From a virus, in the IMG/VR virus record IMGVR_UViG_3300027706_000007, positions 1 to 64,000 of that record: 64,000 nucleotides of DNA; one strand, given 5' to 3'. The position numbers and the translations under genes were made by a program. Positions 40,187-61,211 of the stretch are shown piece after piece. Below the pieces are notes generated by a model that saw only the letters and a list, made by a program, of their open reading frames with translations, searched no databases and was not told where the DNA came from. Each line of letters begins with the position of its first letter. The stretch's first letter is position 1.

Positions 40187-42210
40187 TGAACCAAAAATTC
40201 TTTCGGCGTTTGTACCCATTGTTGCGTTTTCTGGAGAATTACAGACTGCGCCTGTCTTTGCGCTGACAAAAATCTAACTTGCGCTGATGTATCTTTATGA
40301 TAAGTTACTTCTACTACAACATTAAACTGTCCATGAGTATTTGATACTTGATTTGCAGATAACGCTTTTCCGTTAGATATAACGAACAAATATTTTCCGC
40401 TTAAATTATTAACTAAATCGCCCGAGCTATTTCTAGCACTAATCAAAGAAGGTAGCAAATCTATTTTATAATTCGTTTGTATCGGAGCGTCATAGAAAAC
40501 GATACCATCTGGTTGCACACAACGTAAATACACATTTTGGATGCTCGGAGTTGTTGTATAAATTGTTACCCATAAACCTTCAATTAGAGCTTGTTCTGGG
40601 AAATATTGCGATACGACACTACCAAATGTTTTAAGTGTCATTACTTGCGCGGTAATATCTACTGGTGCAACAGCAACCCCCGGAATTAGGAGATTTGAAT
40701 TAAGATAAAATATATTGTTATTTTTTAGCGAGAGCGGGAAAGTTAAACTAACGTTTTCAATTGGGCCTTCTGGCGGGTTGTATACTGAATCGTGTATTTG
40801 TTGTGCATATCTCGCTGCTATAGAATTGCCACTAGGATTAGTTTGTGGATAAAGAAATTGGGTACCTTCTCCATGAACCGTACTAGCCACAATTGGAAGT
40901 ATAAACGTGTAAGTTACATCTTCGCCGTTTTGTGTATCCCAAGTTACGGAAATTCGTCTAACGCGCGCAACAAAATTTGGTTGTGAAAGTACATTTCCGT
41001 TCATATCTTTTACTACACCTACAAAACTTGGGATATTTAATATGACTAAATCGCCCGGATTTATTCTTGGTAATTGAGGATAGGTCGGAGAACCATAAGT
41101 ATCTGGGGGCGCAAAGGTTGATTCTGCTTTAATAACTATATTAGGAATAGGACGTTGAAAGAGCGGAGTAACGTCTTTGATATATGTATTAATTTCTTCG
41201 GGGTCGATAACGTTTCCTAATGTTTTGTTCTGCTGTTTTAATCCGAGTTGCGCGATTGAAGACGGATTTTCAACGGGGACGGCTACAATTTGCGCACCTC
41301 GAAAGTTCGCGCCCGAGTAAACGAAGCTGTTTGCCATATCATCATAATCATATTCCAAAGTAGCTGAAACGATATTTTCCGCTTCAGAAAATATAATTGT
41401 ATCTACGGGCGCGGAACCCGGAGTGGGCGAGGACGCACGGGGGTCATATATTGTATTGGGGCCATTTCCCACCGGTTGCCCAGTTTTATTTTGGCCGATA
41501 CCAAACGCAGATTGAATTGGGTCGTAATATTCGATATTAAGCGTAGGATAAAATGGTATAGTATCTAACAACGCTTCTGCAATATAAGGTGCGGTAGAAC
41601 TAGAAGAATCGAATAGCGCGGATTGCCATAATCTTTCTATTGCAGACGCGACACTAAAATATTGTAAAATTAATTGGTCATTTACAGTTGCGTTATCAAA
41701 CAGCGAATATACAGTCCCGGGTACAATAGGGGGTAAATGCCCTGTTGAATAACTCTGTGTAAATCCATTCCACACCAAAAAGTCAAATAAATATCCGAAT
41801 GTTAAATTCAATAACGGATTCAAACGAACTAAGTAAGGGTTCGTGTTTGGCGCGAAAGGTGGCGGCGCTAAACCTTCTATCTTAACGAGACGATATTCCA
41901 AAAGTTTCCAATATGATTCTACATAAATTGTCGTTTGAACGCCAGTTTCACTATCCAACGCATATGTTACATTTCCCGAGAATCCGCGAAACATTTGTAT
42001 TTGGCTACCATCCCTGTTAACTCGATAAATTGTAATATCGCGTGCGGGTTCAATATCTTGCGCGCCTGCTAAGGTGATAGTTGCTGTATTTTCGCGCGGA
42101 TGTAAATTTGTCTGAAACTCAATTGAGACGATATTATTTGTAAATTTCGTTTGTCCATCATATTGCACGATATAAGTTATTGTTGAATAAGTTGGGTTGC
42201 TCATTTTCAC
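40183..42210 (-). CDS. Tail hub/baseplate (Tal-like) protein
   Basis: Follows the tape measure gene; MFRG, ENIVS...Y, SIAQLGLKQ and INPGDLV...RVRRISVTW. Probable start ATG 42204 with SD GGTGA. Confidence 0.7.
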   Translation of the reverse strand: MKMSNPTYSTITYIVQYDGQTKFTNNIVSIEFQTNLHPRENTATITLAGAQDIEPARDITIYRVNRDGSQIQMFRGFSGNVTYALDSETGVQTTIYVESYWKLLEYRLVKIEGLAPPPFAPNTNPYLVRLNPLLNLTFGYLFDFLVWNGFTQSYSTGHLPPIVPGTVYSLFDNATVNDQLILQYFSVASAIERLWQSALFDSSSSTAPYIAEALLDTIPFYPTLNIEYYDPIQSAFGIGQNKTGQPVGNGPNTIYDPRASSPTPGSAPVDTIIFSEAENIVSATLEYDYDDMANSFVYSGANFRGAQIVAVPVENPSSIAQLGLKQQNKTLGNVIDPEEINTYIKDVTPLFQRPIPNIVIKAESTFAPPDTYGSPTYPQLPRINPGDLVILNIPSFVGVVKDMNGNVLSQPNFVARVRRISVTWDTQNGEDVTYTFILPIVASTVHGEGTQFLYPQTNPSGNSIAARYAQQIHDSVYNPPEGPIENVSLTFPLSLKNNNIFYLNSNLLIPGVAVAPVDITAQVMTLKTFGSVVSQYFPEQALIEGLWVTIYTTTPSIQNVYLRCVQPDGIVFYDAPIQTNYKIDLLPSLISARNSSGDLVNNLSGKYLFVISNGKALSANQVSNTHGQFNVVVEVTYHKDTSAQVRFLSAQRQAQSVILQKTQQWVQTPKEFLVH

Positions 42211-47081: not shown

Positions 47082-48076
47082 ACATCTATATCGGGTCTAG
47101 CAACATCGTTCGCAGTGACGAGTTGTCTGCGCGACGCGAGTTCGCGTTTCAGTGTAGCTCTCTCTTCTTCTGATGACCGTCGGAATCCATTCGAGTCAAT
47201 CTGTAAAAGATATACTTTACTCCATTCTTGTATTGTCGGATAGCGAAGAACCCAAATATTACGCGCGCCCGTAGGAAATGGTATCGTAACTTCACGTTCT
47301 TCTTTTTTAATTGTTTTAGTTTGTTTTAAGATATTAAGAAAGTCGTTACTACGTTCGATTGCAAATAGTACTTTTACATGATGACCAACCGCGCTGCCCC
47401 CCTTAACGACGGCAGAGGTTATCGTCTGGAACGGTACCGTAGGATTCATAGATAGGTGATGTGTAGTAAATATGTATATTTGCTCTTTCGTTAGTTCGAC
47501 AACTTTCATAAGATAAATGAAGAATGCCTCTTCAAGTGCCTGTCTCAGTGGAAAATTTTGCTGGCCACCCATTAGAAGAATATCAAACGCGGCCGTGATT
47601 GAATCGATTACTATAAGGCCAATGTTATTTTCTCTTATGAAATCTAATAGTGGAGATGTCTCAGGCGCGACAGAAATCGGAACGAATTCTGCTTTAGTTG
47701 CTTTAACTTTAGTTTCTTGTTCTTCATTTTCTTCAACTTTCTTTGGTGTATGTTTTGTCATCATAAGATTTCCTGATATACCTACAAGTCTCAGCAAATC
47801 GAGTGGCATGGGTACATATTTATAGTGCAGTGTGAGTTTTGTGTTATATTTTACCTCAAGCGACGGTGCCCACAAATCTTGGAAATAATGAGACGATTCT
47901 TCCGAACTGATATATAGAGTATCTTTTCCGGTCTCGCGTTTAATTTGATAAGCTAATTCTAGCGCGTATAAGGATTTCCCAGATTGCTTCCTACCCATCA
48001 TACCCGTAATTATGCCAGCAGGCATCGTTTCGTCGAGATATGGAAATTGCATCGGCACTATGTAAAATAATCCCAT
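47075..48076 (-). CDS. RadA/RadB-like RecA-superfamily ATPase (no N-terminal HhH)
   Basis: GRKQSGKS, LYISSE, IVIDSIT and KGGSAVGH. Confidence 0.8.
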   Translation of the reverse strand: MGLFYIVPMQFPYLDETMPAGIITGMMGRKQSGKSLYALELAYQIKRETGKDTLYISSEESSHYFQDLWAPSLEVKYNTKLTLHYKYVPMPLDLLRLVGISGNLMMTKHTPKKVEENEEQETKVKATKAEFVPISVAPETSPLLDFIRENNIGLIVIDSITAAFDILLMGGQQNFPLRQALEEAFFIYLMKVVELTKEQIYIFTTHHLSMNPTVPFQTITSAVVKGGSAVGHHVKVLFAIERSNDFLNILKQTKTIKKEEREVTIPFPTGARNIWVLRYPTIQEWSKVYLLQIDSNGFRRSSEEERATLKRELASRRQLVTANDVARPDIDVQ

Positions 48077-55795: not shown

Positions 55796-55966
55796 GTGGC
55801 TCAATATTATATACCATATCGAAAAACAACAGGTTTAGCACGTTGTAGTTGTCCCTATTGTGAGCACGTTTTTATTGACGAATGTAAAAATGAAACCTGT
55901 CTGTGCGAACTTGTAGATAATTTAATCTATCATAATGAAAGAAAACATACAGCCCGTAAAAAATAG
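55796..55966 (+). CDS. Small Cys-rich protein (56 aa, not in ORF track)
   Basis: GTG start after TATA; CSCPYCEH...C....CLC. Confidence 0.5.
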   Translation: MAQYYIPYRKTTGLARCSCPYCEHVFIDECKNETCLCELVDNLIYHNERKHTARKK

Positions 55967-56047
55967 TTCGCCATATTTTATTACTGTTCGCTCTCGGCGA
56001 ACAAAAATTTCAGAAACCCTTAAATAAAATAACTTTGTAGCAGATTC

Positions 56048-56118
56048 GCGGACAGGGGACAAAGACAGGGGGTGCCTCGGCGCCCCGCAACCGGTGCTGT
56101 TCTTTGTTCTCTGCCTGC
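56048..56118 (+). ncRNA. Candidate small structured RNA (~71 nt)
   Basis: GC-rich intergenic island 21 nt after BRE/TATA gaaacccttaaata; ~21-bp outer stem with G-U pairs and an inner 7-bp hairpin. Confidence 0.55.
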
Positions 56119-56165
56119 TTAAATTATCAACAAAGTTTAAATAAATAGGAAACTACTTTTAGAAC

Positions 56166-56579
56166 ATGGAATTGGCTGATTTTTTGCGGCGTTTCAATAT
56201 CCAAAACTGGGAAACGAAACACGTAACGGAAAATAGAATAGAAAGTAGCGTAAAAACTAATGGCTATGAGTACATTGAACGATTGCTATCGACTCCAGTA
56301 AGTGATGGTAGACACCGCATAATTTGGCTAATCCTTACTCCATACTTAATTAATGTAAAAAAATTATCTGAAGAAGACGCATCCATGTTAATAATGAAAT
56401 ATATAGACAAGTGTAACGAATTAACTAATACGAATGCGATTGACCGCTTACAATATTATATTCAATACGCAACTGTAACAGGATTAATGCCACCTAAACT
56501 CGTGACTTTGCAACAAACGGAGCCTGATTTATATAATATAATAACTAAAGCCATCGGTGAAACACAGCATGCAGATTGA
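56166..56579 (+). CDS. priX: Primase non-catalytic subunit PriX-like
   Basis: YIERLLSTPVSDGRHRIIWLILTPYLINVKKLSEEDA...YIDKC. Confidence 0.8.
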   Translation: MELADFLRRFNIQNWETKHVTENRIESSVKTNGYEYIERLLSTPVSDGRHRIIWLILTPYLINVKKLSEEDASMLIMKYIDKCNELTNTNAIDRLQYYIQYATVTGLMPPKLVTLQQTEPDLYNIITKAIGETQHAD

Positions 56580-58644
56580 TTCCGCGAATTATATTATTGA
56601 TGAAGGCAAACTAAAGGTTAAGTATTTCATAGATGGCAAAGAGTACATTGAATCAGACCCTACGCCCGCGCCCTATATGTTCGTACCGCGTAGATATGCA
56701 ATAAATAGCACACATCGAGAAATGGTCGATTTAACTACATTTGATACTGACGAATTAGTATACAGATACAATTATCCGCGTCCGTCCGCCGTTAAAAATG
56801 CGCGCTTATTACTTGAGCGCCGCGGAATACCTACTTACGAAGCTGACGTTCTTTATCGTAAAAATTGGATGCGCGATAATGATATTATTTGTGGAAATTA
56901 TCCGCGACAAATCACAATGGATACAGAAGAAATGGATGTTCCCTCACTACCAGATGTAGCGACGGCGCAGCAACCCATTATAGCAATAGGCGTGATTTAC
57001 AATGGTAAACAACTAGTATGGACAGGAGAGGAAAAGTCTATGCTTGAGGATTTTTTTACATTTCTACAAAGCGAACGCATCCAGATGATAAAAACGTGGA
57101 ACGGCAAAGCATGGGATTGGCCATATTTAATTAAGCGCGTCCAAAATTATCCTTCACTGGTCACAAAAGTAGATTTTTTACAATTTCGACATTTAGATTT
57201 AAGCCTTTTGTATAGAATATCACAAAAAACCTTTAAAACTGGATGGAGCCTCGAAAAAGTAGGAAAACGATTTTTAAATCGCGAAAAGCCTTTCGTTAAT
57301 CAGCGCATGGGTATGCTTTCAAAAGAGCAGTTAAAGGAACGCGTTTTGTGGGATGCAGAAATAACGGATTTGATTGACAGTCGCGTTGGACAAAGTAAGT
57401 ATAGCGATTTGGCAATCGAACTCGCAAAAATGTCATATATATTTCCAGATGAAACTGTCTCGGAAAATCCAAATTCAGGTAATTTAACTATCACACCGGT
57501 ATTAGACCAAATCTTTCTGAAACAAGCTAGAATTTCTGGTTTCGTTCTTCCCTGTAAGCAACAATTTCAAGGCGCATATCAGGGCGCAGTTGTACTCGAA
57601 ACCGAATATGGTATCTTCTCAGATGTATTACAATTTGATTTCTCATCTCTGTATCCCAACATAATGCTTGCTTATAAAATTGCCCCTTATGGAAAATTTG
57701 AGAATTTTTGGGAGCCTATTATACGTAAATTTTTAAATCAAAAGGAATTAGCAAAAAAGCTTGCAGATAAAGCGAAATATTGGTCTTCCAAAATAGCATC
57801 AAATTCGCTATATGGAATTATGGCAAGTAAAAATTACAGATTCGATGCATTAGCCGAAGCGCGACGCGTCGCAGCACAGGGACGAACAGTTCTTTTATCG
57901 CTTAAAGATTTTCTTCCCACACTAAATTATTATATACGTTACGGAGACACTGATAGCACATTTATCCCCGCTAAATACAGCGAGAAAGATGTGTTAAGTA
58001 CTATACTCAACACATATATCGCTCAGAACTTCTCTCCAAATTTGAAACTAGAATTTGCCGCATTTTGGGATAAAATCGCCTTTACGCGCGGCATGGATGC
58101 GAAAGCTGTCAAAAAGAGATACTTCGGTCGCATAAAATATAATGAGAAAGGTGAATTAGTTAATACAATAGAAATAGTAGGACTCGAAAGTATGAGAAAT
58201 GATTGGTGCGAACTGGCGCAAGAAATCCAAGAAATGGCCATCCATGAAATACTTAATGATGTACCGAAAGAGAAGATAATGGAAAAAGTATACACGATAC
58301 TCGATGATATGTATGCAGGTAAATTAGATTCAAAATTAGTACTTGAGAAACATCTAAAAAAGGACATATCTCAATATAAGGTCAGAACACAACACTTGAA
58401 AGCATATCTATCAGCGTTAGAGTCTGGCTGGGTTCCAGTCGATATGCTCCAATATCACGTCATACGCTATTATCTCACGCGTAACGGGCCAAAACTAGTT
58501 AATCTCACACAGCCTAGCGAAATTGATTATGGTTTATATTGGGCGAAACAAATCGCTCCAATCTTGTATCGTCTGAATATACTCGACGAACTACCTAAAT
58601 ATAAAAACAAAATTCTCGCTGACCCAAAACAGAAAACGCTATAG
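56557..58644 (+). CDS. polB: Family B DNA polymerase
   Basis: Exo DTE and WNG..WDWPYL; motif A DFSSLYP, B KIASNSLYG, C YGDTDS; KKRY. Confidence 0.95.
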   Translation: MKHSMQIDSANYIIDEGKLKVKYFIDGKEYIESDPTPAPYMFVPRRYAINSTHREMVDLTTFDTDELVYRYNYPRPSAVKNARLLLERRGIPTYEADVLYRKNWMRDNDIICGNYPRQITMDTEEMDVPSLPDVATAQQPIIAIGVIYNGKQLVWTGEEKSMLEDFFTFLQSERIQMIKTWNGKAWDWPYLIKRVQNYPSLVTKVDFLQFRHLDLSLLYRISQKTFKTGWSLEKVGKRFLNREKPFVNQRMGMLSKEQLKERVLWDAEITDLIDSRVGQSKYSDLAIELAKMSYIFPDETVSENPNSGNLTITPVLDQIFLKQARISGFVLPCKQQFQGAYQGAVVLETEYGIFSDVLQFDFSSLYPNIMLAYKIAPYGKFENFWEPIIRKFLNQKELAKKLADKAKYWSSKIASNSLYGIMASKNYRFDALAEARRVAAQGRTVLLSLKDFLPTLNYYIRYGDTDSTFIPAKYSEKDVLSTILNTYIAQNFSPNLKLEFAAFWDKIAFTRGMDAKAVKKRYFGRIKYNEKGELVNTIEIVGLESMRNDWCELAQEIQEMAIHEILNDVPKEKIMEKVYTILDDMYAGKLDSKLVLEKHLKKDISQYKVRTQHLKAYLSALESGWVPVDMLQYHVIRYYLTRNGPKLVNLTQPSEIDYGLYWAKQIAPILYRLNILDELPKYKNKILADPKQKTL

Positions 58645-60473: not shown

Positions 60474-60947
60474 ATCCCATCCATGTCTAACAAATGACTA
60501 TATTAATATTTACGATTAATTTTGCAGATTGCGCGCAGTATAAAAGTCTAGCGCTTTTTTGGATTTATACGCCACCATTCGATTTGATTTATTGGCACAC
60601 GTTCGTCGATTTCATGTGTAAGATTGGTTTCGATATCATTAACAATAGCGCGGAACCAATTTAGTTCACTGAATCTGATTTTGATAATTTGTTCTTGTAT
60701 CGCATATTTAACCAAGACCCGCGCACGCTTACGCTCGCGTCGCAGCGCCTTACTAATCGCGCGTATAACTCTTAAATCGGACTCATGTCCTCTTGTATCA
60801 ATTTTTGGTTTCGTTGCATCTGCGGCTATAAGCGGGTAGCATATAAAAGCTTTTTTAAATTTAAAAATCGCAAAAACCTTATAAAGATAAGTGACATAAG
60901 AGCCACGTGATGAGCACGGGTGCTGTGCTGGGAGTGCGTATAAAAAT

Positions 60948-61211
60948 ATGAAAGTACGTGAAATTTTTTTCTGGTGGCAACTGCAGCCTATTGGCGCGTT
61001 AGAATGCGCGTATCGTCTATCACGTAAGATGAATGTACCTTTTACTGCGCTAGCTTATGAGGCGAAAGAATATCTTACATGTAAGGATTCTTCGCCACTT
61101 CCTGATTTTGAGCCATTCTGGGAAGACATCGCTTATGATATGCGCTTAGGGACGCGCGATTTAATCATAGCAAATAAATTACGCGCATCTCTAAAAATGT
61201 GCGCGGTCTAA
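60948..61211 (+). CDS. Hypothetical protein
   Basis: 87-aa ORF. Confidence 0.45.
   Translation: MKVREIFFWWQLQPIGALECAYRLSRKMNVPFTALAYEAKEYLTCKDSSPLPDFEPFWEDIAYDMRLGTRDLIIANKLRASLKMCAV

Follow-up and report, generated by a model that had tools for sequence, protein, structure and literature searches.

A candidate small structured RNA gene upstream of priX-polB in an uncultivated virus genome

Directly upstream of the replication genes priX and polB of an uncultivated virus, which we take to be a tailed virus of archaea, a promoter-like sequence is followed by a GC-rich inverted repeat in place of a gene. This raises the question as to what is made from the locus, if anything: a free-standing small RNA, a leader of the replication genes, a replication start, an element acting as DNA, or nothing of use to the virus. 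The original prediction, drawn from the letters of a 64-kb window (the whole stretch of DNA analysed, being the first 64 kb of a 94,123-bp IMG/VR contig), favoured a viral non-coding RNA or a structured replication origin.

The promoter and its surroundings

The contig has a GC content of 39% and an estimated completeness of 68%. Its genes are closely packed, with ORFs of at least 50 aa covering 93% of the genome, and the 199-nt ORF-free gap in which the hairpin resides is the third longest present. As had been claimed, no ORF follows the promoter: none of at least 40 aa was found on the + strand between positions 55966 and 56166. The GC-rich 71-mer described in the original prediction is likewise present, at 56048-56118, and is itself the second-highest GC island of the contig.

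PriX and PolB are the only products of the neighbouring ORFs that match Pfam or PHROG families. The priX gene (56166-56579, + strand) encodes 137 aa (PF18689, E = 3.6e-14) and is leaderless, with no Shine-Dalgarno (SD) sequence upstream, while polB (56557-58644, + strand) encodes a family B DNA polymerase of 695 aa (PF00136, E = 1.5e-34), its start overlapping the end of priX and its own TATA being located at 56528. On the other side of the gap lies a 56-aa, cysteine-rich ORF (55796-55966, + strand) with a zinc-ribbon-like arrangement (C-x-C-x2-C ... C-x5-C-x-C); it matches no family and is preceded by the top-scoring promoter of the genome. The spacer following this ORF (55967-56003, + strand) carries a T-rich tract, ATTTTATT, which is likely to be the terminator of the cysteine-rich gene, and a small hairpin formed by the inverted repeat GTTCGC-TCTCG-GCGAAC at 55987-56003. 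The motif GTTCGC[CT] occurs three times within these 37 nt, twice as a direct and once as an inverted copy, just 5' of the promoter discussed below, and may represent an operator. A search with the viral uS2 protein recovered nothing beyond the query itself.

In order to assess the promoter, a position weight matrix (PWM) was built from 61 viral promoters, the promoter in question (P1) being excluded from the training set. The promoter 8-mer of this genome takes the form [CT]TTA[AT]A[AT]A, and TATA-like 8-mers display a sharp peak 28-37 nt 5' of ORF start codons, implying that most genes are leaderless; transcription would be expected to start about 29-32 nt downstream of the 8-mer's first base. 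P1 (56004-56026, + strand) consists of an A-rich BRE-like stretch followed by the TATA sequence CTTAAATA at 56019-56026. Its score of 18.5 exceeds the median of the training set, 15.7, and places it 12th among 188,190 positions. The BRE/TATA string that had been proposed, gaaacccttaaata, is part of a genuine, very strong promoter at the standard spacing of this genome, the only adjustment being that it occupies 56013-56026 and begins one base later than the 56012 first given. About 36-40 of the top 45 PWM matches sit 26-42 nt before an ORF start, which indicates that such matches are nearly always working promoters, and several of those that seem not to fit reflect miscalled start codons or genes led by an SD sequence. 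P1, 60878 (+ strand) and 7869 (- strand) are the true orphans among these 45.

The start predicted from P1 falls within 56048-56051. Archaeal transcription starts prefer a purine after a pyrimidine (PMC7289017), and the G at 56048 on the + strand, which follows a C and lies 29 nt from the first base of the TATA sequence, is the predicted start site. This G is also the first base of the hairpin stem, which thus begins exactly at the predicted +1.

The claim that priX possesses its own TATA downstream of the hairpin proved correct. Promoter P2 (56121-56145, + strand) contains the TATA sequence TTTAAATA at 56136-56143, 30 nt before the ATG, and ranks 13th by PWM, immediately after P1. The two promoters are arranged in tandem, 117 nt apart, and their modules are 72% identical over 25 nt. 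SD-led genes of this genome carry GAGGTGA, which priX does not; given that priX is leaderless, has its own top-ranked promoter and lacks an SD sequence, P1 appears to be both unneeded and ill-suited for its translation.

The 3' end of a P1 transcript is less readily assigned. No run of four or more Ts was found between the stem and the priX promoter; the first such runs after the hairpin, TTTT at 56157-56160 and TTTTTT at 56180-56185 (codons 5-7 of priX), both on the + strand, are candidate 3' ends should the U-rich 3' arm of the hairpin not stop the transcript. However, 41% of the ordinary promoters of this genome also have no T run of at least four upstream of them, so that the missing run says little. 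In archaea, a poly-U stretch is sufficient for intrinsic termination and hairpins are not used (PMC7289017).

Fold of the 71-nt hairpin

Minimum free energy (MFE) folding and pair probabilities of the + strand RNA from 56048 to 56118 yield a rod of 71 nt with an MFE of -41.4 kcal/mol. Its purine-rich 5' arm (56048-56068, + strand), in which GACAGGGG occurs twice, pairs with a pyrimidine- and U-rich 3' arm (56097-56118, + strand) to form a lower stem of 20 bp that includes three G-U pairs, one A56052/C56114 mismatch and one bulged U. The irregularities are those of the original prediction, which had counted a stem of about 21 bp. Enclosed by the arms is an apical hairpin (56069-56086, + strand), the GGGGUGC-CUCG-GCGCCCC element foreseen earlier, in which a 7-bp stem (56069-56075 / 56080-56086) with one U-G pair is topped by a CUCG loop. 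It is followed by a 10-nt internal loop, GCAACCGGUG, present on the 3' side only (56087-56096, + strand). In all, 54 of the 71 nt are paired, amounting to 27 bp. The original prediction had further proposed a GCA/UGC mini-stem and hence a three-way junction. The pair probabilities of this mini-stem reach only 0.33-0.41, and in the computed ensemble the rod with its one-sided internal loop is the dominant form, with the three-way junction persisting as a minority conformer. When a 153-nt leader is folded, the hairpin is retained as an independent domain. An alternative hairpin at 56078-56099, followed by TTCTTTGTTC, displays the pattern of a bacterial-type terminator.

The hairpin ranks first by MFE among 23,512 windows of 80 nt covering both strands of the 94-kb contig. 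Relative to dinucleotide shuffles, the + strand RNA has a z-score of -3.84, with one of 200 shuffles folding as well, in comparison with -1.49 for the - strand RNA. Single-stranded DNA folds of the two strands attain z-scores of -1.68 and -0.24, neither of which is significant. The fold is thus specific to the RNA of one strand, which agrees with the argument that the G-U pairs favour an RNA over a protein-binding DNA palindrome; the same argument had been extended to a single-stranded DNA structure, and this extension gains no support. At the DNA level, the inverted repeat has arms of 18 nt that are 78% complementary. Three of the four opposed non-Watson-Crick positions of the lower stem are G-U, and these pair only in the + strand RNA, although the excess of G-U over A-C (3 to 1) is not statistically decisive. 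Following correction for GC content, the residual z-score of the hairpin window is -3.5, a value which some 15-20 other loci equal.

Known RNA families, further copies and relatives

The Rfam 15 covariance models were run at the gathering threshold against the whole window and the rest of the contig, without a match. Within 55900-56250, and with the cut-off relaxed to E <= 10, the sole match was a chance one to VrrA on the - strand, whose 14.5 bits fall well short of the threshold of 50. A known Rfam family would have removed the novelty of the RNA originally proposed, and this check accordingly leaves that novelty in place. ARAGORN reported no tRNA or tmRNA genes in the window or in the whole contig and the Rfam tRNA model did not match, so that a tRNA, a tmRNA or a tRNA-derived att site, for which neither tool provided a cloverleaf, was rejected. 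Archaeal C/D box sRNAs carry a C box (RUGAUGA) close to the 5' end and a D box (CUGA) close to the 3' end, which together form a k-turn; neither TGATGA nor CTGA occurs in 56048-56118, and this class was also rejected. Archaeal H/ACA sRNAs are characterized by a pseudouridylation pocket with two sides, an upper stem that contains a k-turn or k-loop, and an ACA directly 3' of the lower stem. The present loop is one-sided, no GA/AG k-turn is seen, and the first ACA lies 12 nt past the stem, which led us to reject this assignment. A mini-ORF of 16 codons, from a GTG at 56072 to a TAA at 56120, was dismissed, as it lacks ribosome-binding-site spacing and its GTG is buried within the apical stem.

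Neither blastn-short nor a single-sequence covariance model of the hairpin (R1) detected a second copy in the 94-kb contig. The proposal of a structured replication origin gained no support either: besides the insignificant single-stranded DNA folds, no genome-scale flip in GC skew was seen at 56 kb (not a strong negative in a contig that is 68% complete), and a small local rise in skew at this position coincides with the + strand priX-polB block. In place of repeated initiator boxes, the only short repeats found are the two copies of GACAGGGG and the three of GTTCGC. Hence, features of neither an R-loop nor an Orc-type origin were recovered on this incomplete contig.

The hairpin might, in principle, act as an antisense RNA. 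The 9-mer ACCGGTTGC, the complement of the internal loop, occurs on the + strand at 41471, 42560 and 50187, three copies as opposed to the approximately 0.15 expected by our own estimate. Two of the three are in minus-strand genes of the tail region, whose mRNA shares the loop's sense, and no coherent set of complementary targets thus emerges from the viral genome, for which reason the antisense reading is disfavoured.

In a collection of 5.8 billion proteins, the nearest PolB outside the protein's own cluster is 44% identical. The other members of that cluster are identical save for the start-codon call and consequently provide no strain variation. An alignment-based PolB scan recovered nine IMG/VR loci at 41-44% identity, all of which keep priX-polB. 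Scans of viral and metagenome contigs with the single PolB protein found nothing, a scan of genome contigs found only a distant haloarchaeal PolB, and named phage and virus records gave distant PolB matches and no DNA match. In the nine relatives, a 326-aa ORF directly precedes priX with no gap. Its homologue in the present virus (33% identity) is located at 47123-48052 on the - strand, 8 kb away and in opposite orientation, and the replication module of this virus has evidently been rearranged. The hairpin was not found in the full records of five relatives by blastn or by model R1, and the relatives' priX-polB operons have no such leader; among the sequences compared, the element is specific to this virus. 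Exact and degenerate DNA patterns had no match in viral contigs, and their 57 matches in metagenomes are about the number expected by chance for GC-rich DNA (a rough estimate). The three of these 57 that have full-length model matches were rejected as homologues, being perfect REP-like palindromes beside a separate terminator hairpin, and they sit in GC-rich contigs that are apparently bacterial.

The relatives have genomes of 46-48% GC with the same promoter grammar and leaderless spacing. In G003, a complete genome flagged as a provirus, a tRNA-Lys(CTT) (L082:10215-10292, - strand) begins 30 nt after a viral-type TATA, which implies that this clade drives RNA genes in the same manner. Furthermore, a small RNA of about 75 nt behind an orphan promoter is common to G002 and G004 (L080:8932-9022 and L088:2324-2414, both - strand). 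Within its outer stem, GCCAG/CUGGC, lie two inner hairpins, the first of which shows three compensatory pairs; the UAAUGACCGAAUGAC spacer is invariant, and a T4/T5 terminator ends the RNA. No Rfam family matches this RNA, and searches of G000, G001, G003, G005 and G006 did not recover it. A covariance model derived from it (R2) found nothing in the present genome, and the idea that the hairpin is a divergent copy of it was accordingly rejected. The same two genomes contain ORF-poor stretches of about 2.5-3 kb (L088:2300-4800 in G004 and L080:8900-12100 in G002), with several orphan promoters and short tandem repeats such as GGGCTTGACTAGG. These stretches may serve as a control or origin region, and the present, incomplete contig showed nothing equivalent.

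A small RNA and the alternatives

Past the end of the window, at 65278-65412 (+ strand), the contig contains a second unit of comparable layout. Behind an orphan promoter (sequence TTTAAATA at 65278, PWM rank 61) come a GC-rich segment of 104 nt with several hairpins and no ORF, and then a promoter and a leaderless 52-aa ORF, in the tandem arrangement also shown by P1 and P2. Its first stem is placed at the predicted +1 and opens with 5'-GCGG, as does the hairpin at 56048, and the fold has z-scores of -2.31 on the + strand and -1.59 on the - strand. The two elements share a design and not a sequence, and the 5' end of the 65.3-kb unit is not purine-rich.

We consider the element at 56048 to be, tentatively and at somewhat short of an even chance, an independent, ORF-less unit from which a small structured RNA is made; the viral non-coding RNA of the original prediction, backed by the promoter, the lack of an ORF, the RNA fold and the want of an Rfam or tRNA match, is in this respect still the best hypothesis. 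Of the roles first suggested for such an RNA, as a decoy, in packaging or in ribosome binding, none gained support. It is favoured by the coincidence of the most stable window of the contig, a fold specific to one strand and a stem placed exactly at +1, by a promoter of rank 12 in the third-longest ORF-free gap of a compact genome, and by the tRNA-Lys of G003, the RNA of G002 and G004, and the 65.3-kb unit of like design. Counted against it are the lack of a T run of at least four before P2, when the G002/G004 RNA ends in its T4/T5 terminator, the 15-20 or so loci that equal its GC-corrected score, and the indecisive G-U excess. We infer transcription, both RNA ends and any function from the sequence. 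The host's archaeal RNA polymerase would be recruited by viral P1 (TATA at 56019) and would start at G56048, whereupon the first 71 nt would fold co-transcriptionally into the rod, its stem flush with the 5' end. Transcription might then terminate within the U-rich descending arm or immediately beyond it, or stop at the T runs at 56157 and 56180 with subsequent trimming back to the stem; either route would leave a stable RNA of about 71-75 nt. As 54 of the 71 nt are paired and no coherent viral target is apparent, such an RNA is likelier to be bound by protein than to act as antisense, and the protein would probably contact the 10-nt internal loop and the apical stem with its CUCG cap. Its position suggests that the partner may take part in replication or its control, proximity to priX-polB being what links the element to these proteins.

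This small-RNA reading finds its closest parallels among the relatives. The RNA of G002/G004 and the tRNA-Lys of G003 show the same promoter grammar, a 30-nt spacing from TATA to 5' end, a length of about 70-75 nt and no ORF, and together they indicate that this viral clade encodes stand-alone RNA genes. The hairpin nevertheless differs from the G002/G004 RNA in lacking any similarity of sequence or structure (R2 has no match here, and R1 none in the relatives) as well as a T4/T5 end. A more distant resemblance is that to adenovirus VA RNA, a transcript of about 160 nt made by Pol III that targets PKR, and to viral rod-like decoys in general, which also combine their own promoter with a long imperfect hairpin, G-U pairs, an apical stem-loop and a central irregularity. 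There is no homology to VA RNA, which differs in its length, its polymerase and its PKR target, and to our knowledge archaea lack PKR.

A P1 transcript could alternatively run through P2 into priX-polB, the hairpin serving as a 5'-terminal domain for 5'-end protection or as a processivity or timing signal, or P1 could occlude P2 and in this way tune priX-polB. We deem this unlikely, while according it some weight. No T run of at least four precedes 56157, the tandem promoters are alike, the hairpin keeps its shape within the 153-nt leader, and the 65.3-kb unit repeats the layout. In bacterial mRNAs, 5'-flush stems block 5'-end-dependent decay, and by analogy the geometry seen here might do so too. 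Yet the missing T run is equally a feature of 41% of ordinary promoters, the relatives' operons manage without such a leader, and a leader of 118 nt would render the AUG of priX internal, with no ribosome-binding signal to serve it. Since priX, which lacks an SD sequence, is arranged to be translated without a leader from its P2 transcript, an independent small RNA is favoured over a leader. The purine-rich first 25 nt of the P1 RNA, with GGGG and GGGGG, the AT-rich flanks and the location directly before replication genes bring to mind a further possibility, namely an R-loop replication start in which these G-clusters stay on the C-rich template beside AT-rich DNA and the RNA 3' end primes PolB. 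The R-loop origins of phage T4 (oriF and oriG) and ColE1 RNA II similarly pair a promoter with a short, G-rich, non-coding transcript by AT-rich DNA near replication genes. Such a start seems improbable here, as it leaves the precisely complementary 3' arm unexplained, a fold-back arm being absent from those origins. Neither a skew nor a repeat signature of an origin was found: the contig, which is only 68% complete, has no genome-scale skew inflection at 56 kb, and the local rise fits the orientation of priX-polB. The insignificant single-stranded DNA folds and the 5' end of the 65.3-kb unit, which is not purine-rich, also weigh against it.

The locus might also act as DNA, either as a protein-bound or cruciform imperfect palindrome or as a recombination cassette that in addition terminates upstream transcription. 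The relevant model is that of the PeSL (promoter-early stem-loop) cassettes of T4-type phages (Arbiol et al. 2010, PMC2839356), in which a strong viral promoter and a stable stem-loop are likewise found between genes in a plastic region of a large tailed-virus genome; here, a second similar promoter additionally flanks the element. PeSLs, however, occur as multi-copy families of similar sequence, are driven by sigma-70 promoters and have stem-loops proven to terminate transcription (PMC2839356). At 56048, a promoter directly before a stem-loop is indeed seen and a dispersed multi-copy family is not: the element is single-copy, driven by an archaeal BRE/TATA and, at 27 bp in all, much longer, and archaeal termination does not use hairpins (PMC7289017). 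The 18-nt inverted repeat, the two flanking promoter modules, which recall PeSL cassettes (PMC2839356), and a gene order that differs from that of the relatives, and hence a rearranged region, do speak for this explanation. It is nonetheless very unlikely in our estimation, with arms that are only 78% complementary as DNA, G-U at three of four opposed non-Watson-Crick positions, and an upstream gene already provided with a T tract of its own. A recent GC-rich insertion, or a chance palindrome behind a duplicated promoter, would account without any function for an element that is unique to this virus, that relatives do without, and that about 15-20 other loci match in fold after GC correction. 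We give this only a slim chance, for the compact genome, the recurrence of the design at 65.3 kb and the joining of a top-12 promoter, at the exact +1, to the most stable hairpin (a coincidence with a probability of about 0.01 by rough estimate) all argue against it.

The small-RNA reading thus amounts to a candidate viral ncRNA gene belonging to no known family, a well-founded prediction from a single genome. A bolder and decidedly less probable extension, which we offer as speculation, is that the hairpin and the 65.3-kb unit represent a previously unseen class of small, rod-shaped RNAs, with a canonical viral promoter and a helix flush to the 5' end, that work with the neighbouring PriX/PolB as a priming or initiation RNA or as a protein decoy that times replication. 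If true, this would make them the first functional ncRNAs of a tailed archaeal virus to be linked with replication. We know of hardly any functional non-coding RNAs of archaeal viruses, and a highly stable hairpin RNA with its own strong promoter beside primase-polymerase genes would be a concrete candidate for RNA-based control or priming of archaeal viral replication. Taken with the 65.3-kb unit and the conserved small RNA of the relatives, it suggests that this uncultivated clade of tailed viruses of about 100 kb routinely carries its own RNA genes.

Two other loci of this contig were noted in passing. At 60878-60947 (+ strand), about 40 ORF-free nt containing a C-box-like GTGATGA lie between an orphan promoter and a second TATA with an ATG at 60948. 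At 67761-67845 (+ strand), a GC-rich double hairpin, ranking fourth by stability among 80-nt windows, precedes a promoter and a leaderless ORF at 67911, and a short stretch of it, GTGGCCCC ... TTCACC, resembles part of the 65.3-kb unit.
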